The translations under genes were made by a program, and so were the position numbers. This document shows, piece after piece, positions 3,092 through 29,214 of a stretch of 64,000 nt of DNA (position 1 is its first letter; each line of letters starts with the position of its first letter). The notes beneath the pieces were generated by a model, which was not told the origin of the DNA, searched no databases, and saw only the letters and a program-made list of their open reading frames with translations. Location of the stretch: positions 66,773 to 130,772 of the forward strand of contig JAFRAK010000039.1 in assembly GCA_017405445.1 (NCBI GenBank), in the 5' to 3' direction. Source of the DNA: Bacilli bacterium (GTDB lineage Bacteria; Bacillota_I; Bacilli_A; RF39; UBA660).

Positions 3092-3301
3092 ATGGGATTA
3101 TTTATTTTAACTGCATCTGGAAAACCTCAAAATCTTTTATTATTACAATATGTAAAAGCTATAGAATCAGAAAAAGAACCTGGTAAATATGCTTTAGCTT
3201 ATATTCAAGCTGATGGAGAAATATTTGAAGATACACTTTATGGTACAATGGCAGAGGCAGAAGCAGCTGCAAATGAAATTAGAGAAGAATTATTAAGTTA
3301 G
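3092..3301 (+). CDS. small protein paralogous to the N-terminal domain of the giant fibre
   Basis: MGLFILTASGKPQNLLLLQYV aligns with MGLFIQRDDGKPVNVTLIQTV of the next gene. Confidence 0.6.
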   Translation: MGLFILTASGKPQNLLLLQYVKAIESEKEPGKYALAYIQADGEIFEDTLYGTMAEAEAAANEIREELLS

Positions 3302-3316
3302 GAGGTATACATAGAA

Positions 3317-6300
3317 ATGGGATTATTCATTCAAAGAGATGATGGCAAGCCAGTAAATGTTACATTGATTCAAACTGTAGTTATAAATCCAGAAGATTCA
3401 ACTCAAGTTTTATGGTATTTTAAGAATGACGAAACATATATTGAATCATTTAGTAGTGCAGCTTCAGCTAACAGTAGATTAGAAGAAGTTATAGACTTAC
3501 TTCTTAATTCTGGTGGAGGCGGTGGAGAATCAGCTGGTGGGGTTGTTCAAAGAGATTATAAATCAGAATTCCCTATACCAGGAAACTCAAAATATATTTA
3601 TATTGAAAGAAGCACTGGTATAACTTATTACTGGAATGCTGCTCAGCAAAAATACGTAGCAGTAGGTGAATCTGGTACTACTGGAACTTATATGTATAAT
3701 GATAAGCTTAACAGTACTCTAGGTGGAACTAAAGTAATAGATAAAGCTGATTTAACAGCTATTATAGAACCATCTACACCTTATTTAGAAGGTTCTTTAG
3801 TTATAGATATAAATTCTAATGAAGGTATGATAACTTCTATTAGTGCTAGTAACGTAAACGTAGTTACTACTTATGTTTCAGTTACTAAATCTTTTGATGC
3901 AGTAGCTAATATAGCTAGTTTACCTACAAATCATAGAGAAGAAGTATTATATTATGTAAAAGATATAAATGAATTTAGACTATGGAGTTCTACTAAAAAT
4001 GCTTATATAGAACCTATGAAAACTATGATAACAGTAGACTCACCAGTAGCTTCAGCTAAGAAGGATACTTTATACATAATTGATGGTATTATGAAATACA
4101 CTACAGATAATATAAATTGGATTTATATAAATACAGATATAAATAAATATCAAAAGAATACTGCATACAAAAAGGGAGCTTTGTTATACTTAGATAATTA
4201 TTTAGTTAAAGCTACTAAAGACTTTACATCTTCTAATCTAACTTTACCGATAGAAGCACTTAAGAAAGATATTGAAGATTTAAATTTAGAAGTTATAATA
4301 GAAGATAAAGAAATACCAACAGTAGATGAATATCGTATTAGTACAGCTTATAAGAAAGATAAATTGTTGTACTTAAATAACAATTTAGTTAAAGCTACTA
4401 GAGATTTTACATCTGACAGTAATGTCGATATAAATTTAGCTTTTGAAAGAGATATTACTTTAGGAAATTTAGAAGTTATAATAGAAGATAAAGAAATACC
4501 AACAATCGATAAATATGCTAAAAATACTGAATATAAAAAAGATAAAGTATTATACTATGGAAATAACGTAGTTAAAGCATTGAAAGATTTTACATCTGAT
4601 AATACTCAAACAGAAATAATAGATGCTTTAAAGAAGGATGTAGAACTTTTAAATGTAGAATATATAGTAGAAGAACCAGTAATGCCTACTATAGATGAAT
4701 ATGAAAAGAATACAGCTTACAAGACAGAAAAAGTATTATACTATAACAATACAGTGGTTAAAGCTATTAGAGACTTTACATCTGATAATGTAGAAGTAAA
4801 CAAAGAAGACGCATTTAAGAAAGATATAAGATTAGGAAATTTAGTAGTTATAACTGAAAATCCAGTAGCTGATAGATACACTCAAAATACAGCTTATAAG
4901 AAAGATAAACTATTATATTTAGGAAATAATTTAGTTAAAGCTTTAAAAGACTTCATCTCTGACAATACTGAAACAGAAGCTATAGATTCTTTGAAAAAAG
5001 ATGTTGAGTTATTGAATCTAGAATATATAATAGAAGAAATACCAGTAGAATTTCCAACTACTGATATGTACGCACAAGACACAGATTATAAAGCAGAAAA
5101 ATTATTATATTATAATAACACTTTAGTAAAAGTTTTATCTGATTTTCATTCTGATGATACAGAAGTTGAAGCATTAGACTCTTTTAATAAAGACATAGAA
5201 GATGGTAACTTAGAAGTAATAGTAGTTAGTCATGATGAAGAGAAAGTAGATAAAGCTGTAGCAACAGATACAAATAATAAGATAATAGGTAAAGTAGAAG
5301 CAACTCAAGAGACTGGAGAAAATGATTTAACATTCACTAAAACGCTTTTAGATGTAACAGATAATACTTCAGAAGATGTTGCAACTACTATAACATCTTC
5401 AAATAATTCTATAAGTTTTGAAGTTAGAGAAACAGCTGGTGGTAAAGAAATAGATATCACTTCTAAAATTTATTTTGTAGCAGTAAATACTTTAAATGAT
5501 TTACCAGTTACAGGTAGTGTAGATACACTTTACTATGTAAAAGATATCAGAGAATTAAGAGTTTGGACAGGTGTAGCTTATGTAGAACCAGTTAAAACAC
5601 TTATAACTACTGATACTACTGCAGCTTTAGCTAAACTTAATACTTTATATGTGATAGATGGTATAGCTAAATTCACTACTGATAATATTAACTGGAAATA
5701 TTTATTATTAGACATAGATGAATATGCACAAGACACAGATTATTATGAAGGTAAGTTATTATATTATCATAATACTCTAGTAAAAGTTTTAACTGATTTT
5801 CATTCTGATGATACTGAAGCTACTACACAAGAATCTTTCGATAAAGACATAGAAGATGATAGTTTAGAAATAATTGTTAGAAGTGAAGACGAAACTAAAG
5901 TAGATAAAATAGTAGCAGCAAACACAAATAACAAAATAGTTGGAAACATAGAAGTAGCACAAGATACAACAAATGTAGAAGATTTAAACGTTACTAAAAC
6001 GCTTTTAGATGTAACAGATAATACTTCATCTGAAAAACACACTATAATTACTTCTTCAGATGAATCTGTATCATTTGAAGCAGAAACAGACTCATTAACT
6101 GGAGTTACTACAGTAGATATTACTTCTAAAAAACTATTTAAAGTTGTAAATACTTTAGCTAATTTACCAGTTGAAGGAGATTTAGATACACTTTACTATG
6201 TAAAAGACATAAATGAACTTAGAGTTTGGACTGGAACAGTTTATGTAGAGCCTGTTAAAACTTTAATCACTACAGATACAACAGTAGCAAATGCAAAGTT

Positions 6301-7738
6301 AAATACTTTATATGTAGTAAATGGAGTAGCTAAATTTACTAGAGACAATATTAACTGGGAATACTTAGTATTAGATATAGCAGAATATGCACAAGACACT
6401 ACTTACTATGCTGGAAGATTAGTATATTACCATAATACTTTAGCAGTTTCTTTACTAAACTTTACTTCTGATAATACAGAAACAACAGTTCAAGAATCTT
6501 TCAATAAAGATATTACCGATGAAAACTTAAAAATAATTGTTAGAAGTGAAGATGAACTTAAAGTAGATAAAGCTGTAGCAGATGATACAAATCATAAAAT
6601 ACTTGGAAGTTCAGAAGTAGAATTGAATTCAATAACTGAAGAGTTAGAAATAACTAAAAAGATTTTAGACGTTACAGATAATACTTCACAAGAAAAGAAA
6701 ATAAAAGTTAAATCTACTAATAATGCAGTTACTTTTGCACTAGAAGTAGACCCTATAACTGGAGTAACTACAATAGATATAGATGCTATAAAATATTTAG
6801 TAAGAGTAGCTAGTTTAGCTAATTTACCAGTTGAAGGTAGTGAAAATGCAATATACTATATAGAAGATATAACTGAATTAAGAATATGGGATTCTACTAA
6901 TGAGGTTTATATAGAGCCGGTTCATACAATAATAACTGATGTAGTACCTGTAGCTACAGCAAAATTAAATACTTTATATGTAACACCTAATTCTATAAAA
7001 TATACTTCAGATAATGTAAAGTGGAATTATTTAGCTTCTGAGGTATCAGAATACATTCAGGGACAAGATTATTTCAAAAATATGATATTATATTATAATA
7101 ACGTTTTAGTTAAAGTAGTTGATGATTTTACATCAGATGATACAGAGAGTACAGTTCAAGAATCATTTGATAAAGATATAGAAGATGAAAACTTATTACA
7201 AATTATAGATGGAAATAATTGTGAAGTACCAGTTACTAATATCTATGATTTAACATCTCAAATAGATGGAACTACTCAGATATTTAATATAGATTCAAAC
7301 ATTAAATCAACAGATACAATATTAGCTTTCTATGCAGGTCAACATTTAATAGAGGATGTTAATTATGAAGTAGATTATGATAATCATACTTTAACTACTT
7401 TATTAGATGAAGCACCTAATACTAGAGAAAACAAACACTTATATTTAATTGTTGGAACTATATCTGGAAAACAAGAACAAGAAAATACTTTCAAGAGAAG
7501 TATAGATTTAGAGCAAACAAACTGGGTAGCAGCTGGAACAAAATATGCTTATACAATATCTGACAGTAAAGTAAAAGCTACTAGTGTAGTTAAAGTTAGT
7601 TACAAATCTACATCTGTAGAAGACGCTTTAGCTGCAGATATAAAAGATATAATATCAGTTAGCAATGGACAATTTACAATTTATGCTGAAAGTCAACCTA
7701 GTGAAGACATTTCAATAAATTATATTATATTTAGATAA
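3317..7738 (+). CDS. giant repeat-containing tail fibre-like protein (1473 aa)
   Basis: GGGGG linker after the N-terminal domain. About nine copies of a ~60-aa unit (NTAYKKDKLLYL.NNLVKA.KDFTSDN...KKD.E.LNLE.I) and three tandem ~220-aa units. Located in the fibre module. Confidence 0.7.
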   Translation: MGLFIQRDDGKPVNVTLIQTVVINPEDSTQVLWYFKNDETYIESFSSAASANSRLEEVIDLLLNSGGGGGESAGGVVQRDYKSEFPIPGNSKYIYIERSTGITYYWNAAQQKYVAVGESGTTGTYMYNDKLNSTLGGTKVIDKADLTAIIEPSTPYLEGSLVIDINSNEGMITSISASNVNVVTTYVSVTKSFDAVANIASLPTNHREEVLYYVKDINEFRLWSSTKNAYIEPMKTMITVDSPVASAKKDTLYIIDGIMKYTTDNINWIYINTDINKYQKNTAYKKGALLYLDNYLVKATKDFTSSNLTLPIEALKKDIEDLNLEVIIEDKEIPTVDEYRISTAYKKDKLLYLNNNLVKATRDFTSDSNVDINLAFERDITLGNLEVIIEDKEIPTIDKYAKNTEYKKDKVLYYGNNVVKALKDFTSDNTQTEIIDALKKDVELLNVEYIVEEPVMPTIDEYEKNTAYKTEKVLYYNNTVVKAIRDFTSDNVEVNKEDAFKKDIRLGNLVVITENPVADRYTQNTAYKKDKLLYLGNNLVKALKDFISDNTETEAIDSLKKDVELLNLEYIIEEIPVEFPTTDMYAQDTDYKAEKLLYYNNTLVKVLSDFHSDDTEVEALDSFNKDIEDGNLEVIVVSHDEEKVDKAVATDTNNKIIGKVEATQETGENDLTFTKTLLDVTDNTSEDVATTITSSNNSISFEVRETAGGKEIDITSKIYFVAVNTLNDLPVTGSVDTLYYVKDIRELRVWTGVAYVEPVKTLITTDTTAALAKLNTLYVIDGIAKFTTDNINWKYLLLDIDEYAQDTDYYEGKLLYYHNTLVKVLTDFHSDDTEATTQESFDKDIEDDSLEIIVRSEDETKVDKIVAANTNNKIVGNIEVAQDTTNVEDLNVTKTLLDVTDNTSSEKHTIITSSDESVSFEAETDSLTGVTTVDITSKKLFKVVNTLANLPVEGDLDTLYYVKDINELRVWTGTVYVEPVKTLITTDTTVANAKLNTLYVVNGVAKFTRDNINWEYLVLDIAEYAQDTTYYAGRLVYYHNTLAVSLLNFTSDNTETTVQESFNKDITDENLKIIVRSEDELKVDKAVADDTNHKILGSSEVELNSITEELEITKKILDVTDNTSQEKKIKVKSTNNAVTFALEVDPITGVTTIDIDAIKYLVRVASLANLPVEGSENAIYYIEDITELRIWDSTNEVYIEPVHTIITDVVPVATAKLNTLYVTPNSIKYTSDNVKWNYLASEVSEYIQGQDYFKNMILYYNNVLVKVVDDFTSDDTESTVQESFDKDIEDENLLQIIDGNNCEVPVTNIYDLTSQIDGTTQIFNIDSNIKSTDTILAFYAGQHLIEDVNYEVDYDNHTLTTLLDEAPNTRENKHLYLIVGTISGKQEQENTFKRSIDLEQTNWVAAGTKYAYTISDSKVKATSVVKVSYKSTSVEDALAADIKDIISVSNGQFTIYAESQPSEDISINYIIFR
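4144..7200 (+). repeat. nested coding repeats of the giant fibre: six tandem ~60-aa units (about 4144-5230), then three ~660-nt units (about 5218-5873, 5874-6533, 6534-7200)
   Basis: Protein-level periodicity, e.g. IVRSEDE.KVDK..A..TN.KI.G at 5874 and 6534. Unit boundaries are approximate. Confidence 0.75.
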
Positions 7739-7754
7739 AGGAGGAAAGTAGAAT

Positions 7755-9791
7755 ATGGCAACAACAAAAATTTCAGTACAACAACTATCTGATGAATTAT
7801 TCAAATTAGTTGGTAGAAATTATTTATTTGTTAGTAAAGACGTAGTAACTTTTAATGCTACAAGTATAGATTTATCTAAAGCCAATTTTACAAATGCAGA
7901 AGGTTTAGAGCCAGAATGGAAAGAAGTTAATAGAGCAGCTTTCGCATTTGTTATAGATACTTCTAATAATGTCATTGTAGCAATAGCAAATATTACTGCA
8001 GTAGATTCTACAAACAATGTAATTTCTATAATAGTAAAAGCTAGAGAAGACTCTTTAGTTTACAAAGGTGAAGTTGCAGATAGAGCTCATTTACCTACTA
8101 CTGGAATGGCTACTGGAGATACTTATTATATTCAAGATGAAGCATCTACTACTTACTATAATGGAACTAACTGGATTGATATGAGTGGAGATAAGAGTTC
8201 ATTTATTTGGAAATGTAGCACAGATTTAGCTTCTTCAGTTACAACTCAAGTAACAGTTCCACTAGCTAATTTAACCAGAGTAGATGATAATACTGTAGTC
8301 CCAACATCTAGAGATATGATTATAGGTAAAACTATAATTTATTCTAACGATGGTTATATTGGAACAGTAATCGCATTAGCTGGAACTACTGGAGTAATAG
8401 TAACTAGAATAACTAAAGACACTAAATCAGACGGTATTTATAACACATCAGATGTAATATCAAATGATGTAGGAGATACAACTGAATTAGATGTAAATAA
8501 TATTACTAATATAGATTTAGACAAAGTAGTTTTAAATGAAACTTTGATTTATGATGATGCTGGTACTTTAGCTAAAGTAACAGCTATAGATACAACAAAT
8601 GATACAGTCACTGTAACCACAATTACTAAAGTAAGTGTAGAACCAAGTGATGGAACTTATAAAACTACAGACACTATTTCAACTACAATAGACGCTACTA
8701 CAGTTTTAGATGTTACTAATATAGCTGGATTAGTTCTAGCAAAAGTAGTTATAAATGAAACACAGATATACGATGCAAGCGGAACTGTAGCAATAGTAAC
8801 AGCTATTGATGATACTAACAATGAAATTACAGTTAAAACTATTACTATATCTGATGGTGAAACAATTCAAGTAGAAACATTGCCAACAGCAAGTGCAACA
8901 GAAGAAGATAAGATTTATCAATATATAGGAGCTACAACATCTACTTTAACTAATGGACATTTTTATAAATGTGTAAGTGATGGTGAAGACCCAGCAACAT
9001 ATAGTTGGGAAGAAATAAAATATTCAGCAGAAATATCAGAAAATGAAACTAATGCTATAACTTTATTAAACGATAAAATGTATACTAGAAAAGTTCAATT
9101 AGAAACATTACCAACAGACAAAGAAGAATATGAAGGAATGCTAGTTCAATATATAGGAACAACTACAGCTAATTATACTAATGGTTACTTTTATAAATGT
9201 CAAGAAGTAGCAGGTAGTGACCCTAAAGAATATGAATGGATTCAAGCTTTAACTCAAGAACAAGAAGATGGTGTACCTCATTGGAGTGGTACAAGAGCAG
9301 AATATGAAGTTGTAAAAGATACACTTCCTGTAGGAACTTATGTAAGTTTTACAGACGATTATGATGAAGGACTTGAAGTAGTAGATGTTGTTGAAGAAGA
9401 TAATATGAATCCTGTTACAAGCAACGCAGTGTATGAGTTTGTTAAACCACCTCTTGAACAAACAATGTCTGTTGATGTTACAAAAGGTGAAGGTGAAGTA
9501 ATTTGTGAACTTACAGCACAGGAAGACGGTATGTACATGGTAATTTTCTGTGCATATATAACACATAATAATACAGGTAATTATACATATCTTATTACAA
9601 CTACGCAGAATGGCTTGTATAATTATCAGGTTCATTTACCTGACACTGGTTTGTGGCAGACATACGTTGGCTACCTTGGGCTTAGAAAAAATGAAAAAGC
9701 ACAAATCAAATGTCTTAGTGGTCTTGGTAATTATCAGGCAACGTATCATGGTTCATATAGAATGATTAAATTTGCTGAATTACCAGCATAA
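7755..9791 (+). CDS. tail fibre-like protein with internal repeats
   Basis: Repeated ~70-aa units (DG.Y.T.D.IS....T..LDV.NI......KVV.NET.IYD..GT.A.VTAID) and a duplicated LETLPT...QYIG.TT...TNG.FYKC motif. The 3' third is more GC-rich. Confidence 0.65.
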   Translation: MATTKISVQQLSDELFKLVGRNYLFVSKDVVTFNATSIDLSKANFTNAEGLEPEWKEVNRAAFAFVIDTSNNVIVAIANITAVDSTNNVISIIVKAREDSLVYKGEVADRAHLPTTGMATGDTYYIQDEASTTYYNGTNWIDMSGDKSSFIWKCSTDLASSVTTQVTVPLANLTRVDDNTVVPTSRDMIIGKTIIYSNDGYIGTVIALAGTTGVIVTRITKDTKSDGIYNTSDVISNDVGDTTELDVNNITNIDLDKVVLNETLIYDDAGTLAKVTAIDTTNDTVTVTTITKVSVEPSDGTYKTTDTISTTIDATTVLDVTNIAGLVLAKVVINETQIYDASGTVAIVTAIDDTNNEITVKTITISDGETIQVETLPTASATEEDKIYQYIGATTSTLTNGHFYKCVSDGEDPATYSWEEIKYSAEISENETNAITLLNDKMYTRKVQLETLPTDKEEYEGMLVQYIGTTTANYTNGYFYKCQEVAGSDPKEYEWIQALTQEQEDGVPHWSGTRAEYEVVKDTLPVGTYVSFTDDYDEGLEVVDVVEEDNMNPVTSNAVYEFVKPPLEQTMSVDVTKGEGEVICELTAQEDGMYMVIFCAYITHNNTGNYTYLITTTQNGLYNYQVHLPDTGLWQTYVGYLGLRKNEKAQIKCLSGLGNYQATYHGSYRMIKFAELPA

Positions 9792-9852
9792 AGGAGAAAA
9801 TGAATTATGAGTGTTAATATAAAATATAGAAAGGAGAAAATGAATTATGAGT
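9791..9852 (+). repeat. duplicated gene junction (22-nt SD+ATG unit twice, 40-nt period) leaving an 18-codon stub ORF
   Basis: aaggagaaaatgaattatgagt occurs at 9791-9812 and 9831-9852. Confidence 0.85.
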
Positions 9853-19220: not shown

Positions 19221-20576
19221 TTGGCACAATTAGACAATCTTCGCAAGAAATGTGAAGTTCTAGGTTTAGAACCAGAGAAAACTAGAAATAGAGTAAATAA
19301 AGAGACTGGTGAAAGATATAGAGAAAGTACAATAGACAGTTGTATTTTAACTTTACAAAATTATTATATTGAAAAATATAGAAGTGAAGGAGTATTAAAT
19401 CCTTTTGTAGAAAGAATATTAGAGTTTAAACCGATGTTAGCAGCTCAAATGAAAGCTTTAAAAGAAGATGAACAATCAAAGCTTTGGGTAGACAATAATA
19501 ATTGGATGGCTACAGAGAAAATAGATGGAAATAGAATGAGATATTGTTATAATGAAAATTATGGAGTAGAATATTTTTCTAGAAATCTATCAGAAGGTAA
19601 CGATGGAGATTATCTTCCACTTAGATATTCTAGTAAATTAACTATTCCAAGACCAGATATGAATGCACTTAAAGCTGCAGGAATACATGATTTTATAATA
19701 GATACTGAATTAGTTCCATATTATGACCATATAAATCAATTTAGTAATCTTAGAAGAATAGATGGAGAATGGAAAGAGGTTTTAGAATACCCAGTAGCAG
19801 ATACTGGATTATCACTTACTACTTCAGTTTTAGGAGCACTAGATGATTTATCTCATAGAATGCAAGAAACTAACCCTATGAAATTGATGGCTTTTGATAT
19901 AATATCATTGAATGGAGAAGATTTAACTCAAAAACCTTTAAAAGAGAGATTATTACAGTTAGCTAAAATAATGACAATTCTTAGAAACAATGGATTAGAA
20001 GATAAAATACAATTAGTAAAAGGAACTACTGTTAATAAAACAAAATTCTATAAAGATATAGCTTCTAAAGGTGGAGAAGGATGTGTAGTTAAAGACTTAA
20101 ATTCTATATACGTAGGTAAAAGAGAAAAAACTTGGGTAAAAGCTAAACGTTCTGTATCTGGTTCTATACTAGAAGAACAAGCTGGAGATACTATAGATGC
20201 TTTCATTATTGGATTTAAAAGAGGTAATGAAGGTACTAATATAGAACAATACGTTGGAGCAGTAGATTTTGGTATATATCTTTTAGATGAAGAAGGTAAT
20301 TTTGTCACAGATGATATGGGAATGCCTGTTATACATCATATAGCTACTGTTTCAGGTTTAACATTAGATGAAAGAATTCAAATGACAGAGATAGGACCAG
20401 ATGGTCTACCTAGATTAAAGAAAGATTGGTATAATAAAGTAGCTGAAATTGATGGACAAGACGTAAGTTCTAAAAACTTAAGATTATCACACTCATTGAT
20501 TAAAAGATGGAGAATGGACAAAAATGCAGATGATTGTCAAATTAAAAAGAGCTTCTTAGAAAGCTTAATATTATAG
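19221..20576 (+). CDS. ATP-dependent DNA ligase
   Basis: Motif I EKIDGNR, plus FIIDTELV, GGEGCVVKD and WVKAKR. TTG start with GAGAGG upstream. Confidence 0.9.
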   Translation: MAQLDNLRKKCEVLGLEPEKTRNRVNKETGERYRESTIDSCILTLQNYYIEKYRSEGVLNPFVERILEFKPMLAAQMKALKEDEQSKLWVDNNNWMATEKIDGNRMRYCYNENYGVEYFSRNLSEGNDGDYLPLRYSSKLTIPRPDMNALKAAGIHDFIIDTELVPYYDHINQFSNLRRIDGEWKEVLEYPVADTGLSLTTSVLGALDDLSHRMQETNPMKLMAFDIISLNGEDLTQKPLKERLLQLAKIMTILRNNGLEDKIQLVKGTTVNKTKFYKDIASKGGEGCVVKDLNSIYVGKREKTWVKAKRSVSGSILEEQAGDTIDAFIIGFKRGNEGTNIEQYVGAVDFGIYLLDEEGNFVTDDMGMPVIHHIATVSGLTLDERIQMTEIGPDGLPRLKKDWYNKVAEIDGQDVSSKNLRLSHSLIKRWRMDKNADDCQIKKSFLESLIL

Positions 20577-23405: not shown

Positions 23406-23488
23406 ATTAAAATTTTAAAGGAGGTTATAAAATAACCTCTTCGTTATTTATTATAATAGGAAATTGTTATATGGAGGTAGTAACTTTT

Positions 23489-23767
23489 ATGGAAAAATCT
23501 GATGTAATATTTAGAGTAGCTAAAGATACTGATACTAAAAAACTAGCATCTGCAATATTCTCAAATTTGAAGAATACAGATAGTCTAGTTTTAAGTTGTT
23601 TAGGGGTACCTGCAGTAAATCAAGCTATAAAAGCTATAATTATTGCAAGAAGCTCTAGTATAAGTAATGGGTTTGATATAGCTAGTTACCCACATTTCTC
23701 AGAAGTAGTAATTTCTGGAGAAGAAAAAACTAGTATAGATATAGTTTTAAAGAAAGATTTAGTATAA
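23489..23767 (+). CDS. SpoVS-family (stage V sporulation protein S-like) protein
   Basis: FRVAKDTD..LASAIFSNL....LSCLGVPAVNQAIKAIIIARS...NGFDI...PHFSEVVISGEEKTSIDIVL is colinear with B. subtilis SpoVS (..IGAGALNQAVKAVAIARG...SGVDL...PAFTDIQIDGEERTAIKLIV). Confidence 0.8.
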   Translation: MEKSDVIFRVAKDTDTKKLASAIFSNLKNTDSLVLSCLGVPAVNQAIKAIIIARSSSISNGFDIASYPHFSEVVISGEEKTSIDIVLKKDLV

Positions 23768-23782
23768 GAAAGGAGAATAAAC

Positions 23783-25120
23783 ATGAGTAGATTAGACGGA
23801 GAAGCTAAAAGAGTTAGTGGTAATATTTTACACAATCTATTAGAAAATGCATCAGCTAAAACTTCAACAGAAAGACAAATAAATACAGATAAACCAGAGG
23901 AAGCTCCAAAAGAAACTAAAGAAGCTTTAGTTAAGAAGGTTCAAAAACCAGAGGTTCCTCATAAAGAGCACATTAAAGAGTCAGCTGGAGAACCTGGAAC
24001 TCAATATAGAGTTGTAGTATATACTCCATTTGGACAAATTGATGTAGATGTAGATGCAAACAGTGAAGAAGAAGCTAATGAAGTAGCTGTAAATAAAGTA
24101 AAAGATGCTTTTCAAGATGAATATAAAAGTGAAATAAGAGCTGCTAAAGTAATAAAATTAACAGAAACTGAAGAATTAGTAGAAGATATTTCTTCAGAAG
24201 ATAAACTTCAAGAATTACAGAATAGAGTAGCTGGATTACAAGATTATTTAGATAATACACCAGAAATAGCAGATGATGAAAGACAAGCAATTCAATCAGA
24301 AATAGATGAATTATTAGATGAAATAAACTATTTTGAAAATGGTTTACCAGAAATCGAAGAACCATCTGAAGATGATTTACATTTAGGAGAATCAGCTTTA
24401 ACAGAAGCTCCTAATCCAGAAAACGATGACATTAACAAAAAGATATTAAGTACTATAAGAACTAAATCAGATGTAGAACCAAGATATAAATCAGATTTAG
24501 AAGCAGCTGGACTAAAAGTAGAACCTAATAAATATGAAAATAGCTGGAATGTAATAGGAAGCAATGGTAGAAAGTTATCTAAAGATGCTTTTATGGGTGG
24601 TAAAAGTGCTAGATTTAACTCTAACAATAATAAAGTAGCTGATTATTACAATATGTTAACTAAAGAAGTAGATAATGATAAAAATTGGCAAAATAAAGAT
24701 TTAAGAAATTCTAAACCAATTCAAAGACAAGATAAATGGCATCACTATAATAAAGAAACACATGAGTGGGAACCAGGTACAGATTATTCTAGAAAAGAGT
24801 ACGATAGAAGACAAAGAAATTCTATGGGATACAATTTCGATGATTTAAGAGGCGGTTCTAAAGATATTAGAGATTATAAACAAGCTCAAGGTAATGAAGA
24901 CTTTCATAGTAGAGCTAAAGGATGGTCTCAAGATGATGTAGATTCAGCCAATAAGAAATTAGCTGATTTTCAAGCTAGTATATCTGACAAAATAGCAGAA
25001 TTACAAAGAAACATAGATAGAGCAAAAGAAAATTATAACTCTCATGTTTCAGGAGAAGAACAAGCTAAACAAGCTAAGCAAGATATATTAAATAGAAAAA
25101 GAGAAGCTCGTAATAAATAA
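23783..25120 (+). CDS. acidic/charged protein with MSRL-type N-terminal leader (head-internal or scaffold candidate)
   Basis: Starts MSRLDGEAKRVSGNILHNLLE|N. Low-complexity, E/K/D-rich. Confidence 0.6.
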   Translation: MSRLDGEAKRVSGNILHNLLENASAKTSTERQINTDKPEEAPKETKEALVKKVQKPEVPHKEHIKESAGEPGTQYRVVVYTPFGQIDVDVDANSEEEANEVAVNKVKDAFQDEYKSEIRAAKVIKLTETEELVEDISSEDKLQELQNRVAGLQDYLDNTPEIADDERQAIQSEIDELLDEINYFENGLPEIEEPSEDDLHLGESALTEAPNPENDDINKKILSTIRTKSDVEPRYKSDLEAAGLKVEPNKYENSWNVIGSNGRKLSKDAFMGGKSARFNSNNNKVADYYNMLTKEVDNDKNWQNKDLRNSKPIQRQDKWHHYNKETHEWEPGTDYSRKEYDRRQRNSMGYNFDDLRGGSKDIRDYKQAQGNEDFHSRAKGWSQDDVDSANKKLADFQASISDKIAELQRNIDRAKENYNSHVSGEEQAKQAKQDILNRKREARNK

Positions 25121-25140
25121 TTTGAAGGAGGTAAATAATT

Positions 25141-25869
25141 ATGAGTAGATTAAATAATGAAGGTGTAAGAAAAGCTGCAGGAGGAATACTTGCAAATTTA
25201 ACAGAAGCAGAACATTTATCAATTAAGAAAAGAGTTTTAACAGATAAACAAGGCACAGTAGAAACTAGAATATTAGAAGAAAGTGTAGAAGAAAAAGAAG
25301 AAGTTAAAGATGAAAAATTAAATGAATCAGTAGAACCTACACAACCAGAAGGAGCTGAAGACCCAGTTCCAGGTGAAGGTAAAGAACCTTTACAAGAAGA
25401 TGAAATAGAAGGTGAAGAACTTCCAGTAGAAGAACCAGCAGCTGAAGACCCAAATGAAAAATTAGCTAAAGCTACAGAGTTATTAGCTAAAGTATTTGGT
25501 GTAGAAGTTAGTGAAGAAGAAAGAGAAGCTGCTAGAGCAGAATTAACAGATTTAGTAGCTGGAGAAGCAGAAGCTACTGAAGAACTTCCAGTAGAAGAAC
25601 CAGTAGAAGGTGAAGAAATAGTAGAAGAATCTGCTAAAATCTGTGAAAAATGTGGAAAAGAACCTTGTGAATGTGAAAAAGATAAAGCAGAAGAAAAAAT
25701 GGTAGAAGGTTTAGAGATAGTAGACGTTGCTAATAACAAATTCTTACTAAAAGAATCAGCTGGTTATATCGTAGGTAAAAACTATAATAAAGCTACTGGT
25801 TTAATAGAAGAAGCTGAAACATATAAAACAGAAAAAATCGCAAGAAAAGCATTTGATAGATTAAAATAA
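25141..25869 (+). CDS. highly acidic protein with MSRL-type leader (scaffold/internal protein candidate)
   Basis: Starts MSRLNNEGVRKAAGGILANLTE|A. Contains E/P/V-rich repeats. Confidence 0.6.
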   Translation: MSRLNNEGVRKAAGGILANLTEAEHLSIKKRVLTDKQGTVETRILEESVEEKEEVKDEKLNESVEPTQPEGAEDPVPGEGKEPLQEDEIEGEELPVEEPAAEDPNEKLAKATELLAKVFGVEVSEEEREAARAELTDLVAGEAEATEELPVEEPVEGEEIVEESAKICEKCGKEPCECEKDKAEEKMVEGLEIVDVANNKFLLKESAGYIVGKNYNKATGLIEEAETYKTEKIARKAFDRLK

Positions 25870-25903
25870 GTAACATATAATCCTATATAGGAGGATGAAT
25901 GTT

Positions 25904-26284
25904 ATGGAAATTACAAGTGTAAAACAAGCGATAAAAGAACAGATTACACAAATAGATAACTTTATAAATAATTTACCAGATTTAAAAGTTAATCTAGATT
26001 GGAATCAAAAACACAACAAAGAGATAGTAGATAGAGAATGGACAAAATATCTTAATATAGAAGATGATTTAACTAGAACGATATTAGCCTCTGAATATTT
26101 ACAATCACAAATAAAGGAGGCTATATCAGTTTTAGGTAATAATTTAGAGATAGAGATAAATCAAAAGAATATGTTAAGAAAATCATTAGATATATTAGAG
26201 AATAGAACTAAACCATTAGAACAATTAAGAATGGGAATACAAAATAAAATTTACTATTATCAAAGATTATCTAGAGATATTTAA
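25904..26284 (+). CDS. hypothetical protein
   Basis: AGGAGG lies 9 nt upstream of the ATG at 25904. Confidence 0.55.
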   Translation: MEITSVKQAIKEQITQIDNFINNLPDLKVNLDWNQKHNKEIVDREWTKYLNIEDDLTRTILASEYLQSQIKEAISVLGNNLEIEINQKNMLRKSLDILENRTKPLEQLRMGIQNKIYYYQRLSRDI

Positions 26285-26306
26285 AATCTGGCAGAAAGGA
26301 GTAAAG

Positions 26307-27284
26307 ATGAAAAAGACTCTAAAGTTAGTAGAATCAGATAATAAAAAGGATAGATGGAAAAATTTCTGTAATAGTATGGCTAAAAAGGGATTTTTAAATA
26401 TAGATAATATGGAAGCTTTATCTGATAATGATTTTATAGATAAGCTTTCATTCGATGAATTAGATATGTTTAATGAATTAGAAGCATATAGCTATCAAGA
26501 AATACAAGATATGGTTAGAAAAGAATTAGCTAAAAATGAAGAAAATATATTTGGACAAGAGACTGCTGATGAAAAGAAAGCTAAAGAAGATAGTGCTAAA
26601 AGAGGTTTATACCCTGCAAGTGAATTAACAGAAGATGTAGACACTGGAAAAGATGAAGAGAATGATACAGCTGAAGAAATAGCAGATGAAATGCAAGATG
26701 AAACTCCAGCAGAGGAAGAAGAAAAGTCTAACGTATTAGATTCAGAGTTAGAAGACTTAAGAGAAGTTCTTCCAGATTTAGATTTAAATCTCTATCAAGT
26801 AACAGACAAAGAAGATACAAATAAAATCTTTTATTTTATAGGTAAAGTAGCTGAAGATAATAATGATGTATTGATGTTAATAGATAATAATCCAACTAAA
26901 GATATAGATGAACCTTCAACTATAAATGATGAACTACCAGAAGATGAAGATAACAGAGAAGTAGATGAATTAGAAGATACAGAAACTAACAATGACGAAG
27001 TAAATGATGAATCTAAAGAAAATAGATTTGATTTTGTTAGAATACCAGATAAATATGAAGATTTAGCTAAATTAAGTCCAAGATACGGAGATGAATTAAA
27101 TCCGGACCATGAAGCGGTTATGGAATATTTGATGAAATGTTTAGTAGAAAAAGACCCTAAAAGAGCTGAAGAATTATCTTCTGAAAAAGATACAAGTGAT
27201 GGTTCAAAGATACCATTAGATGCTGATATTCAAGCAGACATAGACAATAAAATAGAACACTATTCAAATAATTTAAATAAATAG
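26307..27284 (+). CDS. acidic protein with CTS-like leader MKKTLKLVE|S
   Basis: The leader resembles the T4 capsid-targeting sequence and ends in LxE. D/E-rich. Confidence 0.6.
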   Translation: MKKTLKLVESDNKKDRWKNFCNSMAKKGFLNIDNMEALSDNDFIDKLSFDELDMFNELEAYSYQEIQDMVRKELAKNEENIFGQETADEKKAKEDSAKRGLYPASELTEDVDTGKDEENDTAEEIADEMQDETPAEEEEKSNVLDSELEDLREVLPDLDLNLYQVTDKEDTNKIFYFIGKVAEDNNDVLMLIDNNPTKDIDEPSTINDELPEDEDNREVDELEDTETNNDEVNDESKENRFDFVRIPDKYEDLAKLSPRYGDELNPDHEAVMEYLMKCLVEKDPKRAEELSSEKDTSDGSKIPLDADIQADIDNKIEHYSNNLNK

Positions 27285-27300
27285 AGAAAGGAGATAAACA

Positions 27301-29214
27301 ATGAAAAAACTACTAAAATTGATAATTAAAGAATCAGTAGAAGTAGAACCTAGAAAAATGACTCAAGAAGAGTTTAATAAAGAATTCGGTTCTGGTTCTA
27401 AAGTAGATGTTATTAACGCAGGTAGAGAACCTCAAGATAGAATAGAGATAGTAGATGAATCTGTATTAACTAGAACTGCTGCAGAAGAAACACTAAATGA
27501 AGAAGATGTTTCTTTTGAAGAAATTATCAGAGAAATGGAGAATGCTACTGATTACTCAGAATTATATAATGCAGCTAACAAAATAGCAGATGAAGATTTA
27601 AAAGCAGATGTTAATACGTTAATCAGTCAATGTGAAACTGATGGAGACGATGTAGAAACTGCATATTCAATAGTAACATCTGATTTGTTAGATGATAAAA
27701 TTCAAGATTTAAATGAAGAAGCTTATATTACAATAAATGATGGAAGAAAAGAGGACCCTGATTATTTAATACAAGATGTTACAGAGCTTAAAGATTTAAC
27801 AGATGAAGATGTAGAAGCTCCATCTATAGAAGGTTTACTATCATTAGTAAACGAAAGTTTAAATAATAAATATGGAAGTACTTGGGGTTACATGAAAGCT
27901 AAATCTATATCAATGAAAGAAAACTTACAATATGCTATTATAGATATAGTAACTCCTTCAATTCTTAGAGAAGCTGAAGAAAATAAAATAAAAGACAGAG
28001 CAGTTTCTAAAACTGTTATAATAGAAAGTGTTCCTAATTCAAAATCTTTAGTTAATTTTAAAGTTAATACTTTAGCCGGAACTACTAGATTTAGTCAAAA
28101 AACTAGAGAACCTGCAAAGGTATTTGCAAGATGGCTAGAATCAGAATATTTATATGATGAAATGGTAAAAGACTTTCAAGCTAAAATAGAAGCTAGACAA
28201 GCAGAATTAAAAGATTCTATAGAAAGTTATTTAAAACAACATCCAGATTTAAAAGTTAGAATAGACGTTATAAAAGCTCAAGAAAAATTATTAAAAGATG
28301 CTGGAGTATTAGAAGATAGTAAAGATGAATTAGCTGATTTAGCTTATGGTATAGCAGTAGAATTCCCTGCAAATACTAACGTAAAAGGAAATAAAGACAA
28401 TGAATACACACAAGAATTTGATACAGTAGATGAGATAGTAAAAGCATTGTTTGGAGAATCTTATGTTAGAGAAGAGAAGAAAGAAGAAAAAGAATTAAAG
28501 AAACAAAATAAAAAAGTTCTAAAAAGTTCTTCACTAAAAGAAGGGTATGAAAGTTTTAAAATAGGAGAAATAGAAGGGACATTTAATCCATCTACTGGAG
28601 AAGCAATGTACTCTATTCCATCTAAAAATGTAGTAGATAAGAAAATATCTTTAGATAAAGTTCCTTCAGTAGAAACTCCTTATGATACAGATACTATAAT
28701 AAAAGATTATATAGAAAAGAACTATGGAGTAGTTCAATCACAAGAAGAACCAGCAGAAAATCCAGAGCCTACTCCAGATGAACAACCTCAAGGAGAACCT
28801 ATAGAAAAATCAGATGATGTAGAAACTGCAGAAACAGACGAAGAAGCTGTAGATATAGAAGATGAAAGTTCTTTAAATGAGGATGCTCAACAAGAGACTG
28901 GAAGTGCTAGCTTTTATAAAATAAGACAGAGAGAACCTATAAGTGTAGAACAATTAGCAGATAAAACATCTAGTATGTCAAACTCTCAAGAATCTGAATA
29001 TATAGTAGTAAAAGAAGTAACTTTAAGTCCAGAAGATATGAATAGTCTAACTTCAGATTTATCTAAAGCTCAAAGCTTCTTACAAGGAGTAGAACCAGTA
29101 GATAGAAAGAACTATGCATTTAATGTAGTAAAAGTAACTTCTAATGGTTCAGCTTACACATTGTTAATAGACCCGGTAGGGTACGATTACTGTCGTTACG
29201 TAGCCATAAAATAG
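27301..29214 (+). CDS. large acidic protein with CTS-like leader MKKLLKLIIKE|S
   Basis: 637-aa ORF with the leader motif; D/E-rich. Confidence 0.6.
   Translation: MKKLLKLIIKESVEVEPRKMTQEEFNKEFGSGSKVDVINAGREPQDRIEIVDESVLTRTAAEETLNEEDVSFEEIIREMENATDYSELYNAANKIADEDLKADVNTLISQCETDGDDVETAYSIVTSDLLDDKIQDLNEEAYITINDGRKEDPDYLIQDVTELKDLTDEDVEAPSIEGLLSLVNESLNNKYGSTWGYMKAKSISMKENLQYAIIDIVTPSILREAEENKIKDRAVSKTVIIESVPNSKSLVNFKVNTLAGTTRFSQKTREPAKVFARWLESEYLYDEMVKDFQAKIEARQAELKDSIESYLKQHPDLKVRIDVIKAQEKLLKDAGVLEDSKDELADLAYGIAVEFPANTNVKGNKDNEYTQEFDTVDEIVKALFGESYVREEKKEEKELKKQNKKVLKSSSLKEGYESFKIGEIEGTFNPSTGEAMYSIPSKNVVDKKISLDKVPSVETPYDTDTIIKDYIEKNYGVVQSQEEPAENPEPTPDEQPQGEPIEKSDDVETAETDEEAVDIEDESSLNEDAQQETGSASFYKIRQREPISVEQLADKTSSMSNSQESEYIVVKEVTLSPEDMNSLTSDLSKAQSFLQGVEPVDRKNYAFNVVKVTSNGSAYTLLIDPVGYDYCRYVAIK

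Follow-up and report, generated by a model that had tools for sequence, protein, structure and literature searches.

The window, the 64,000-nucleotide stretch of DNA analysed here, encodes a prohead protease and a major capsid protein of T4 type, together with ten genes whose products begin with short leaders ending in (L/I)-x-E. An initial annotation had described the protease, the capsid protein and two types of leader, and all three were confirmed, the leaders on ten window genes; every N-terminus it quoted was found in place, with a Shine-Dalgarno site ahead. The phage is uncultivated and is known from metagenomes alone (ruminant and human gut); its contig is binned as 'Bacilli bacterium'. 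The features are as follows (vertical bars mark predicted cleavage sites).

23783-25120, plus strand: 445-aa acidic protein (pI 5.0); Type 2 leader, aa 1-21 (nt 23783-23845), MSRLDGEAKRVSGNILHNLLE|N
25141-25869, plus strand: 242-aa acidic protein (pI 4.4); Type 2 leader, aa 1-22 (nt 25141-25206), MSRLNNEGVRKAAGGILANLTE|A
25895-26284, plus strand: 129-aa protein (pI 5.9) with neither a Type 1 nor a Type 2 leader
26307-27284, plus strand: 325-aa very acidic protein (pI 4.1, 29.5% D+E); Type 1 leader, aa 1-9 (nt 26307-26333), MKKTLKLVE|S
27301-29214, plus strand: 637-aa acidic protein (pI 4.4); Type 1 leader, aa 1-11 (nt 27301-27333), MKKLLKLIIKE|S
52996-53745, plus strand: 249-aa acidic protein (pI 4.6), immediately 5′ of the protease gene; Type 2 leader, aa 1-19 (nt 52996-53052), MSRLNNQTSRVNILKALKE|S
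53765-54451, plus strand: prohead protease of T4 gp21 type (Pfam Peptidase_S77, E 1.7e-19; PDB 5jbl, T4 gp21, E 2.9e-9)
54486-54965, plus strand: 159-aa protein; Type 2 leader, aa 1-19 (nt 54486-54542), MKALNNENVGRNIMRILNE|S
54976-55656, plus strand: 226-aa Pol-beta-type nucleotidyltransferase; Type 1 leader, aa 1-9 (nt 54976-55002), MRRTIRLIE|S
56614-57969, plus strand: major capsid protein of T4 gp23 type (Pfam Gp23, E 2.1e-44, domain from aa 82); candidate propeptide, aa 1-31 (nt 56614-56706), with two sites, MVIDTLALKE|A and NALKE|S
59115-59615, plus strand: 166-aa protein; variant Type 1 leader, aa 1-11 (nt 59115-59147), MNRLRRLLLKE|D
61521-61745, plus strand: 74-aa protein; Type 1 leader, aa 1-9 (nt 61521-61547), MKRTIKLTE|E
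61742-62272, plus strand: 176-aa protein; Type 1 leader, aa 1-9 (nt 61742-61768), MRRTIKLIE|K

Some details of the initial annotation had to be revised. The 54486 leader had been listed under an MSRL pattern, but it actually starts with MKAL. The division into two types holds for the window but not for the clade, which has at least four leader classes. The four tagged proteins at 23783-29214 are acidic as described, but they do not form an uninterrupted leader block, as 25895 lies among them. Hydrophobic-x-E occurs near residue 15 in four of four 25895 orthologs (AVKE|R, ALEE|R, AVKE|R, LVDE|I), and the N-terminus of the window protein, MNVMEITSVKQAIKE|Q, is no more than suggestive of a fifth leader type. 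The least certain of the ten leader genes is 59115, which scored 12.1 bits with the full model and was not among the 20 best scores with models that excluded window sequences. A gene at 856 (MRKTLKSE), proposed as a possible member, was dropped because its LxE is out of register, it scores only 3.7-5.3 bits, and its orthologs lack a leader, beginning with MNITLKEPVLG and MKERLQVPING.

The resemblance among the remaining leaders was compared with several controls. On both strands of the window, a loose leader regular expression matched at leader-gene starts only. Six or more identities over the nine residues 2-10 were seen in 3 of 4186 gene pairs, all three of leader genes, and five or more in 10 pairs, eight of them of leader genes; comparison of N-terminal with internal segments gave 1 in 8372. 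HMMs built from two related contigs alone, with window sequences left out, recovered five window genes (26307, 14.7 bits; 61521, 15.4; 61742, 21.5; 54976, 22.0; 54486, 27.4), whereas shuffled N-termini reached 10 bits only 0.01 times per proteome. Beyond their leaders the tagged window proteins are not paralogs: the body matches seen were composition-driven, obtained with composition correction off, apart from a few shared modules. Thymidine kinase and HNH genes interspersed with the tagged genes have no leader, and helical amphipathicity of the leaders was not significant. Codons within the leaders vary synonymously (AGA/AAA for R/K, TTA/CTA/TTG for Leu, TCN/AGY for Ser) while the amino acids stay, which indicates that selection acts at the protein level and not at the DNA level.

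Comparison with five related metagenomic phages (∼120-134 kb) placed the boundary of this conservation at the motif. Orthologs in all five genomes retain a leader ending in hydrophobic-x-E, and the sequence directly after it is hypervariable. The long leader of 23783 is kept in three relatives (MRQLDSEAKKTSANILKSLYE|S, MNRWLETDTQKTARNIINILNE|S and MRFFDTDVQKASKNIIKTLNLNE|S), and 25141 orthologs carry MSRLGNEDVRKTAGGILANLVE|S, MSKLIDNEASRKASFGILEALKE|T and MSKLINNEGATKATFSILENLKE|A; in a five-genome alignment of 26307, the retained leader is followed by an indel-rich stretch. The 27301 family has the largest sample, with 118 of 120 cluster representatives beginning M.K..[KR]L[IV][IM]KE|S, followed by a hypervariable stretch. 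In a 20-sequence alignment of this family, M1, K3 and L7 are invariant, K10, E11 and S12 reach 90% conservation or more, and the next invariant column is E139, so that the leader is better conserved than the ∼125 residues that follow. The AlphaFold2 model of 27301 has pLDDT below 50 at residues 1-69 and 395-416, and a candidate internal site, SSLKE|GYESF (aa 409-414), falls in the latter, low-confidence linker.

Leu occupies P3 in 55 of 64 distinct leaders, with Ile there in 5 and Met in 3, and Ser stands at P1′ in 32 of the 64. Leaders in which the canonical LNE is changed to LNK have a new SLKE or LAE site within the next 3-5 residues. A bare [LIVMF]-x-E is not diagnostic, being too frequent in these acidic proteins; conserved internal copies were no commoner than control motifs with D or K at P1.

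The leader class found on homologous cargo differs between genomes. This was seen for W_61742 (the window gene, Type 1) and L011_8444 (class 4; E 1e-18), L003_17449 (Type 1) and L011_11973 (class 4; E 2e-33), W_52996 (Type 2) and L011_8808 (class 4, MINRKSESIKLLESIQTNLKE|S; E 3e-23), and L006_9383 (Type 1) and L012_5784 (Type 2; E 4e-29). The leader is therefore a swappable tag. Further body homologs are L003_7739 and L004_8179 (Type 2 leader) for 52996, and L012_14283, a Tpt1/KptA-domain protein with the leader MSYRKLRLIE|N, for 61742.

Tagged cargo in the relatives includes domains above Pfam gathering scores: ArdA (41.7 and 39.1 bits), SprT-like (42.3), LPD11 (110.3) and Tpt1/KptA (30.8), the last of which has an ADP-ribosyltransferase (ART) fold. 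Such domain types are described among counter-defence effectors that are packaged in virions or co-transferred (PMC5512222). The number of tagged genes in the variable island between the protease and capsid genes ranges from 0 to 14 across genomes; in one relative, 17 surround the protease when those upstream of it are counted. The ip genes of T-even phages also occupy a genomic hotspot (PMC12373910).

In the window, this interval holds 54486, for which family searches returned no significant match, and the nucleotidyltransferase 54976. The start of the latter is an internal ATG of a mechanical ORF (54928-55656) preceded by an AAGGAG site of its own; the NCBI annotation has the same 226-aa form. 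Its AlphaFold2 model (mean pLDDT 91.2) drops below 50 only at residues 1-9, exactly the leader, and its fold matches, although weak, were nucleotidyltransferases without exception. Across 391 homologs the core begins at LNPKLW, and the peptide ahead of it varies by lineage or is missing. The family is not always head-associated, as a homolog in cyanophage S-CRM01 sits among replication genes.

The leader motif recurs in the head proteins themselves. The protease has KLNE at its N-terminus and, in a C-terminal tail starting at ∼nt 54269, ARLTE|SE, IMTE|SE, NVLNE|S and LMKE|SQ, which are conserved in five genomes. The capsid N-terminus, whose two sites had been noted in the initial annotation, is near-identical in four relatives. 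These two regions are where T4 gp21 and gp23 get processed (PMC9026906). Further LKE|x sites lie downstream of the leader in 52996, a candidate scaffold or core protein.

In T4, gp21 cleaves after L/I-X-E (PMC9026906), and a 10-residue capsid-targeting sequence (CTS), MKTYQEFIAE, sends internal proteins into the core (PMC9026906; PMC8442874). The leaders described here are probably capsid-targeting propeptides that work like the T4 CTS and are removed by the encoded protease. This is what the initial annotation had proposed, and its sequence-based predictions agreed with the data wherever they could be tested here. Tagged proteins would be produced together with the head proteins, and the 9-23-residue tag would anchor its cargo on the scaffolding core as the gp23-type shell closes. 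The S77 (gp21-type) protease would switch on inside the prohead and cut after the Glu of Leu/Ile/Met-x-Glu, mostly before Ser, freeing every cargo from its tag. It would also take ∼31 residues off the capsid protein, trim its own C-terminal tail and fragment scaffold-like proteins. With a second, internal L-x-E site in the long tags, only small peptides would have to exit the shell. Mature cargo would remain in the head, and the variable cargo, at least, would probably be ejected alongside the DNA and act on the host ahead of phage gene expression; this would apply to the nucleotidyltransferase here and to the ArdA, ART-fold, SprT-like and LPD11 proteins of relatives. Core binding, cleavage, head retention and ejection into the host are steps that we infer from T4.

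Alternatively, the leaders could be propeptides without an address, silencing potentially toxic enzymes or serving as mere protease handles, while head entry would depend on regions outside the leader. The only feature that all leader classes share is the terminal L-x-E|S, targeting and processing determinants of the T4 CTS are separable (PMC9026906), and conserved domains further along the large block proteins could themselves bring about assembly. A cleavage site alone, however, gives no reason for 9-23 conserved upstream residues across unrelated proteins or for the invariance of M1, K3 and L7 in the 27301 family, and ORFan cargo of 74-130 aa offers little else for targeting. We regard this reading as unlikely.

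Somewhat less likely again is that the shared N-termini dock another partner (a chaperone, a host factor, or a degradation or secretion system) unrelated to the capsid. Short shared N-terminal peptides serve many purposes, the capsid link is reached by inference, and the tagged genes 61521 and 61742 have neck and tail genes, not the protease, as their neighbours. Against this, tags cluster near the protease, scaffold and capsid genes and terminate in the motif that a protease of the encoded type recognises, and the same motif stands at the expected processing positions in the capsid protein and protease. The leaders, as read from their sequences, lack a hydrophobic core, which rules them out as Sec or lipoprotein signals.

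A nucleic-acid element at the 5′ ends (for translation initiation, late-gene regulation or recombination), with the peptide incidental, is very improbable. All leader genes do combine a strong Shine-Dalgarno site with second and third codons rich in A, and some adjacent leaders of the relative G1531 are near-identical in DNA, which could favour cassette recombination. This reading is largely refuted by the many synonymous differences, among them Ser TCN/AGY switches, each of which takes two nucleotide substitutions. Also against it are a degenerate Type 2 DNA pattern that matches only two IMG/VR contigs while the peptide class occurs in more genomes, and interspersed leaderless genes that are expressed in the same setting. 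A chance resemblance, or simple paralogy within one gene family, retains almost no probability: low-GC genomes do yield Lys/Asn/Ile-rich N-termini, and 856 proved to be a chance match, but the shuffle and internal-segment controls refute it for the ten confirmed genes, whose bodies are non-homologous with the exceptions given above.

Capsid-targeting propeptides of the kind we propose can be compared with several known systems. In encapsulins, a short terminal cargo-loading peptide likewise directs diverse cargo into an HK97-fold shell; unlike the tags as proposed here, it is usually C-terminal and uncleaved and binds the shell protein directly. Neither a protease nor DNA is known to be involved in encapsulin loading.

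In phiKZ, 201phi2-1 and SPN3US, gp21-like proteases cut head and ejection propeptides at S/A-X-E, and phiKZ-type phages share with this one many head proteins with Glu sites, large multi-domain internal proteins and several sites per propeptide (PMC5694885; PMC9026906). The identical N-termini of the diverged paralogs gp53 and gp54 of SPN3US resemble the leaders here, as C-terminal autoprocessing of phiKZ-type proteases resembles the protease tail sites (PMC5694885; PMC9026906). The phiKZ-type P3 residue is Ser or Ala and propeptides often exceed 100 residues, whereas the tags here are short and have a T4-like Leu at P3; a genome-wide leader family, as found here, is not described for those phages.

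The P1 Dar system and polyvalent proteins (Iyer et al. 2017) share the cargo repertoire (ArdA, an ART-fold enzyme, a metallopeptidase and LPD11) and a location beside late structural genes (PMC5512222). Polyvalent proteins are one giant fusion, whereas the cargo here is mostly encoded by separate small genes, each with its own tag, and the proposed packaging signal is explicit in the sequence.

T-even ip loci, like the island here, are variable sets of small genes, most of them ORFans, with nothing but an N-terminal leader in common, and they encode injected anti-restriction proteins, matched here by at least one cargo with an ArdA antirestriction domain (PMC12373910; PMC3012670). They differ in that the present island lies between protease and capsid genes, reaches the sizes given above (14 tagged genes, or 17 with upstream ones) and mixes tag classes, its functions being predicted from sequence.

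T4 itself has a gp21-family protease and a gp23-family capsid protein, as encoded here, and its CTS is likewise a short N-terminal tag ending in hydrophobic-x-Glu on otherwise unrelated proteins. Its 10 residues match the 9-11 of Type 1 tags, with no sequence similarity beyond length, the Met-Lys start and the terminal hydrophobic-x-Glu. T4 Alt is paralleled by the ART-fold cargo of a relative (PMC9026906; PMC8442874). Unlike T4, this phage clade has several tag classes, two of them in the window, and some tags of 19-23 aa with two sites; ten genes are tagged in 64 kb, against three internal proteins (IPs) plus Alt in T4, and a scaffold-like protein bears the same tag. T4 IPs are highly basic (PMC8442874), whereas the block proteins here are strongly acidic; these may resemble core or scaffold proteins more than IPs. 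The tag system is most likely a larger, multi-class version of the mechanism known from T4.

Ten proteins encoded in the window begin with a short peptide of about 10-20 aa that ends in L/I-x-E and is common to otherwise unrelated proteins. The leaders are either short (Type 1, 9-11 aa, as in MRRTIRLIE/S, where the slash marks the predicted cut after Glu at P1) or long (Type 2, 19-22 aa), and they occur in phage DNA of about 27% GC in which every gene is on the + strand. The features concerned are:

23783-29214, + strand: block of acidic proteins with starts at 23783, 25141, 26307 and 27301, and a 129-aa gene at 25895
52996 (start), + strand: 249-aa acidic scaffold or core candidate, Type 2 leader
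53765-54451, + strand: prohead protease
54486-54965, + strand: tagged gene with a long leader
54976-55656, + strand: tagged gene with a Type 1 leader
56614-57969, + strand: major capsid protein
61521 and 61742 (starts), + strand: further tagged genes

All N-termini quoted in the initial annotation were found at their starts, each with a Shine-Dalgarno site upstream, and its figure of at least ten tagged proteins holds, as ten remain after dropping gene 856. The latter had been offered as a possible leader gene (MRKTLKSE) and was ruled out by ortholog comparison, because its orthologs begin MNITLKEPVLG and MKERLQVPING. Gene 54486 had been assigned an MSRL-type start, and its actual N-terminus is MKAL; a ParB-like motif picked out by eye in its product (DGRHR) had no Pfam or PHROG support. 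The leader proposed for 54976 is present, at a start internal to the mechanical ORF 54928. Public calls for this gene differ (242 aa vs 226 aa), and most sources use the 242-aa ORF. That call, starting at 54928, would overlap the end of 54486-54965 and mask the leader; the start at 54976 is favored because of the leader and an AAGGAG site. The protein encoded at 54976-55656 matches NCBI IJF92_00615, a MAG hypothetical protein [Bacilli bacterium], exactly, and it lies on a contig of ~132.4-132.5 kb, ENA ERZ28653717 (XIEF21-1_SAMN15829940).

A permissive regular expression for short leaders matched at leader-gene starts only, on either strand of the window. When residues 2-10 of all 92 gene products were compared all against all, just three pairs reached 6/9 identities or more, each made up of leader genes, and eight of the ten pairs at 5/9 or more were leader-gene pairs. 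N-terminal segments matched against internal ones, as a control, gave 1 such pair in 8372. A 69-aa ORF (3092-3301) and the adjoining 1473-aa tail-region protein (3317-7738) also have 5/9 identities at these residues, and their common N-terminus, MGLFI....GKP.N..L.Q, bears no relation to the leader families. Outside the leaders, no paralogy was found among the tagged proteins: the sole matches between their bodies appear with composition correction off and reflect common acidic composition.

Aligned leader codons show many synonymous differences with the amino acids unchanged (AGA/AAA for R/K, TTA/CTA/TTG for Leu, ATT/ATA/ATC for Ile, TCN/AGY for Ser), and genes of unrelated role amid the tagged genes, such as thymidine kinase 55911 and the HNH genes of relatives, carry no leader. 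The codon divergence and the leaderless genes together argue that selection on the leaders works at the peptide level. As a degenerate DNA pattern, the Type 2 leader matched two IMG/VR contigs and no more. The leaderless thymidine kinase (window 55911-56438, Pfam TK), which serves as an internal negative control, sits in an odd place: it is part of the head module, flanked by tagged genes on one side and by the capsid gene on the other.

Five related contigs were obtained from IMG/VR, and a metagenome scan added extra loci, among them human-gut contigs and more distant relatives.

Related IMG/VR contigs and their loci
G1531: 23-kb fragment; loci L003, L009
G21399: loci L004, L006, L010
G45988a: loci L005, L011
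G45988b: loci L007, L012
G22753: locus L008

The last four are 122-133 kb each, and the clade overall spans ~120-134 kb. The cultured phages nearest to the window, Listeria LIS04, Bacillus HSE3 and Bacillus SP-15, reach capsid protein identities of just 35-37%. In LIS04 and HSE3 the protease domain lies within a 559-aa protein, and Type 1 and Type 2 leaders were not found in either phage, where two loosely similar N-termini (ending LNE/S and INE/S) were all that was seen. Leader HMMs trained on contigs L003 and L004 alone, for which shuffled N-termini gave 0.01 matches per proteome at 10 bits or more, bore out the leaders of 54486, 54976, 61742, 61521 and 26307 with scores of 14.7-27.4 bits; the MSRL-type leaders (23783, 25141, 52996) were not reached by these HMMs and were confirmed via orthologs.

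The acidic block is syntenic in all five relatives, in the order SpoVS-like gene, long-leader protein, second long-leader protein, leaderless 127-aa protein, short-leader protein, second short-leader protein, then membrane and lysis genes. The SpoVS-like protein directly 5′ of the block (window 23471-23767; Pfam SpoVS, 72.6 bits) keeps its position in 5/5 relatives, and the genes after the block encode a small protein predicted to lie in the membrane (holin-like from its position) and a putative lysis enzyme. All block orthologs have kept a leader that closes with hydrophobic-x-Glu, including those of 36-40% overall identity (for example MKYKVLRLVE/S, MAKTLKLVE/A, MYRVLKLKE/S, MPKTFRLIIKE/S and MAKLLRLIMKE/S). 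In the 27301 family, M.K..[KR]L[IV][IM]KE/S forms the N-terminus of 118 of 120 cluster representatives, the remaining two being truncated gene calls. An alignment of 20 sequences shows M1, K3 and L7 invariant and K10, E11 and S12 at least 90% conserved; no further column is invariant before E139, and the leader is therefore more constrained than the indel-rich stretch of ~125 residues that follows it.

Among 64 distinct leaders from six genomes, P3 was Leu in 55, Ile in 5, Met in 3 and Phe in 1, and P1′ was Ser in 32; P3 and P1 belonged to the rule by which leaders were selected, so that what is non-circular in this pattern is the prevalence of Leu and the excess of Ser. Three G1531 genes have LNK in place of the canonical LNE, with a new SLKE or LAE 3-5 residues downstream, which looks like selection for a cleavable end.

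The two leader types described initially are both present in the window but undercount the clade, as relatives add a third class, MKHLTEKSDxLKLFxKLNE/[AGS], and a fourth, M..KSESVKLLESIQTNLKE/[GSD] and MSNTRALFESIQTNLKE/N. A second L-x-E lies upstream in most of the long MKIL, MKHL and class-4 leaders. When bodies were compared after removal of the first 25 residues, homologous proteins were found under different classes of leader.

Homologous bodies carrying different leaders (W_, window gene; otherwise locus and gene position in relatives)
W_61742 (Type 1) vs L011_8444 (class 4): E 1e-18
L003_17449 and L004_14519 (Type 1) vs L011_11973 (class 4): E 2e-33
W_52996 (Type 2) vs L011_8808 (class 4): E 3e-23
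L006_9383 (Type 1) vs L012_5784 (Type 2): E 4e-29

These comparisons indicate that the tag is modular. The 54976 family presents the same picture: in 391 homologs the conserved core begins at LNPKLW, and the peptide ahead of it depends on the lineage (MRRTIRLIE, MSSTIKLLESMLSYLNE, MSNTKNLFESMLSYLNE, MLLKE, MFYFQLKE and others) or is absent. In the AlphaFold2 model of 54976 (mean pLDDT 91.2), the sole segment below 50 is residues 1-9, exactly the leader.

Tagged genes are gathered in arrays. The G1531 fragment has 17, at positions 7739-19412 of locus L003, 14 of them in the interval from the protease gene to the capsid gene. The corresponding counts for this interval are 2 for the window, 6 for G21399, 3 for G45988a and 0 for G45988b. 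A more distant clade, represented by locus L032 (contig ERZ1643251 NODE-158, 117 kb; 14930-19736), has its protease domain in a 549-aa protein (41% identity over the matched stretch) and a leader family of its own, MK[ST]L.EAM.NL.E/S, on four genes beside the capsid gene, with N-termini MKSLNEAMNHLNE/S, MKTLLEAMGNLQ..., MKNLVEAMYNLKGTEKNINE/S and MNSLEKAMNNLKE/S. Because this clade has its own family, lineage-specific leader families may be widespread among phages with S77 proteases.

The reading of 53765-54451 as a T4 gp21-type protease was borne out by Pfam PF03420 (Peptidase_S77; 70.5 bits vs a cut-off of 27) and by a match to 5jbl (T4 gp21, E 2.9e-9). The capsid protein matches Pfam Gp23 (152.9 bits, domain from aa 82), and the two sites noticed at its N-terminus, LKE/A at aa 10 and LKE/S at aa 31, are indeed present, both upstream of that domain; they are kept in relatives and delimit a candidate N-terminal propeptide. 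The protease itself has KLNE at its N-terminus and four conserved sites in its C-terminal tail (ARLTE/SE, IMTE/SE, NVLNE/S and L[IM]KE/S), which parallels the LIE-9 site of T4 gp21 and the way in which gp21-type proteases process their own C-termini (PMC9026906, PMC5694885). T4 gp21 cleaves after L/I-X-E (PMC9026906). Putative removal of the leaders after Glu by the prohead protease is indirectly supported, since the Glu is invariant (64 leaders, 118/120 family members), a lost site is regenerated and, in the AlphaFold2 model of 54976, disorder is confined to the leader.

Internal cleavage sites could not be read from the bare motif. In alignments of block orthologs (A1, and A2 for 26307), conserved [LIVMF]-x-E columns inside the proteins were no more frequent than controls with D or K at P1, so that the motif is uninformative inside acidic proteins; SSLKE/GYESF in 27301 is the sole noteworthy internal site, because it lies within a low-confidence linker. 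The idea that the leaders are amphipathic helices was not supported, the hydrophobic moment against shuffles giving p ~0.05-0.08 for Type 1 and no significance for the long classes.

The only interpretable tagged cargo in the window is 54976, which has a GS...D.D signature and sub-threshold Pfam nucleotidyltransferase matches (NTP_transf_2, E 0.02). A fold search with its model returned Pol-beta nucleotidyltransferases only (MNT antitoxins, ANT enzymes, CD-NTases; E ~1e-3, TM 0.2-0.5), which supports the predicted fold class but no specific function. Its family, PHROG 36119, also occurs in Lak megaphages, T4-like cyanophages (S-CRM01, S-N03 and others) and Maribacter and Caulobacter phages, with 33-37% identity to the Lak and cyanophage homologs among the matches listed. 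The S-CRM01 homolog gave no proteomic link, and its gene lies among replication genes, not in a head module. For the four block proteins, family searches gave no match except PHROG 21303 (unknown function) at the C-terminus of 27301, and the AlphaFold2 model of 27301 (mean pLDDT 54.6) was too poor for a fold search. As they are kept in every relative and very acidic, the block proteins are more likely core/scaffold-like or inner-body-like than accessory.

In the variable islands of relatives, the recognised domains of tagged cargo all scored above Pfam gathering thresholds.

Domains in tagged cargo of relatives
ArdA antirestriction, on a class-3 leader: 41.7 and 39.1 bits
SprT-like metallopeptidase: 42.3 bits
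LPD11 polyvalent-protein domain: 110.3 bits
Tpt1/KptA, ADP-ribosyltransferase fold: 30.8 bits
DUF5662: 79

The remaining cargo is mostly ORFan. ArdA, Tpt1/KptA and LPD11 in relatives are counter-defence-type domains, and the window shows the nucleotidyltransferase fold only. Classes described as packaged or co-transferred counter-defence effectors include ArdA, ARTs such as T4 Alt, and polyvalent proteins (PMC5512222).

Other features of the head region were seen in passing. A CobS/MoxR-like AAA ATPase (window 50348-51667; phrog_249, E 1.8e-61) and a DUF7192 protein (51680-52579; phrog_1909) lie immediately 5′ of the head module, a likely place for a portal gene; none of the window genes checked could be assigned as portal or terminase. 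Window 52667-52984, just 5′ of the scaffold candidate, belongs to a second family with a common N-terminus (L003:5280-5930 and 5952-7655; L004:7314-8099; L011:4174-5955 and 5978-6607; L012:3558-3950 and perhaps 4066-5349). Its N-terminal ~50 aa are conserved (M.IKKLVQTGEDN.G.FNVMDGLSF..A.N.NADELGT.TKLDL..HNTPE), its C-termini differ greatly in length (proteins of 105 to 593 aa), and the ORF next to the G45988b member has SprB, PKD and Ig-like repeats; the family may decorate the capsid in the manner of Hoc, the constant part serving as anchor and the variable part for display. The G45988b capsid gene (L012:8680-11146) is interrupted by a ~1 kb insertion whose ORF (MKLECLICGKNY...) resembles window gene 58219-58965 (MKCLICGKECKN...), just 3′ of the capsid gene and with weak Pfam matches to ROS_MUCR and Phage_endo_I. 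The insertion is probably a mobile intron or homing-endonuclease cassette.

With the existence, selection, boundary and modularity of the tag, the identities of protease and capsid protein and some cargo domains established, a T4-like route is the best-supported model for the leaders. By analogy, the tag would bind the scaffolding core, the shell would close around the core, the protease would cut the tag off after Glu, the mature protein would remain in the head and accessory cargo would be ejected with the DNA. Tag swapping on homologous cargo is in line, indirectly, with a leader that would by itself direct a protein into the prohead core, and tag classes may differ in the partner, copy number or core position that they specify. 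Tentatively, as a realistic possibility that we stop somewhat short of expecting, this gut-phage clade and at least one distant clade (L032) have a modular capsid-delivery system in which interchangeable classes of cleavable tag load arrays of co-injected proteins. Such arrays may deliver up to 17 effectors (ArdA, an ART-fold enzyme, a nucleotidyltransferase, SprT-like and polyvalent-protein domains, and many ORFans).

If the tags work in this way, the sequence would reveal which proteins travel in the capsid and reach the host before phage gene expression, a set rich in anti-defence functions and otherwise found by virion proteomics only. The tags would then allow the injected "first-strike" proteome of uncultivated phages to be listed from sequence alone, and would serve as a ready-made toolkit for loading foreign proteins into these capsids. 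Most tagged genes are ORFan, and the tags thus nominate dozens of candidate injected gut-phage effectors for functional screening; the same cargo under different tags is a natural experiment on what a capsid-targeting peptide requires.

No published description of the clade or its leader families was found in literature searches restricted to T4/CTS and polyvalent proteins. The principle is already known and will not surprise a specialist; the interest lies in the scale, the modularity and the use for finding injected effectors in uncultivated phages. In T4, the 10-residue capsid targeting sequence (CTS) MKTYQEFIAE is sufficient for packaging (PMC9026906; PMC8442874), and in T-even internal proteins, which are injected anti-restriction factors, the CTS leader is the sole common part (PMC3012670; PMC12373910). 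All sequence-testable features of the T4 CTS/gp21 system are matched here except homology of the tag: by inspection against PMC8442874, the leaders share with MKTYQEFIAE only Met1, Lys2, a hydrophobic P3 and Glu at P1. The leaders thus appear analogous to the T4 CTS, with homology not demonstrable, and by this analogy the system would be its functional equivalent. In contrast to T4, several tag classes co-exist here, some of them long and two-site, far more genes are tagged, the same tag is found on a scaffold-like protein and on large acidic proteins, and lineage and habitat differ; in contrast to phiKZ and SPN3US, P3 is Leu and the tags are short. The T4 CTS principle, documented so far for the short tags of T-even coliphages and the long propeptides of phiKZ-like phages, would thereby extend to a distant lineage of the ruminant and human gut, with several tag classes side by side and much larger cargo arrays.
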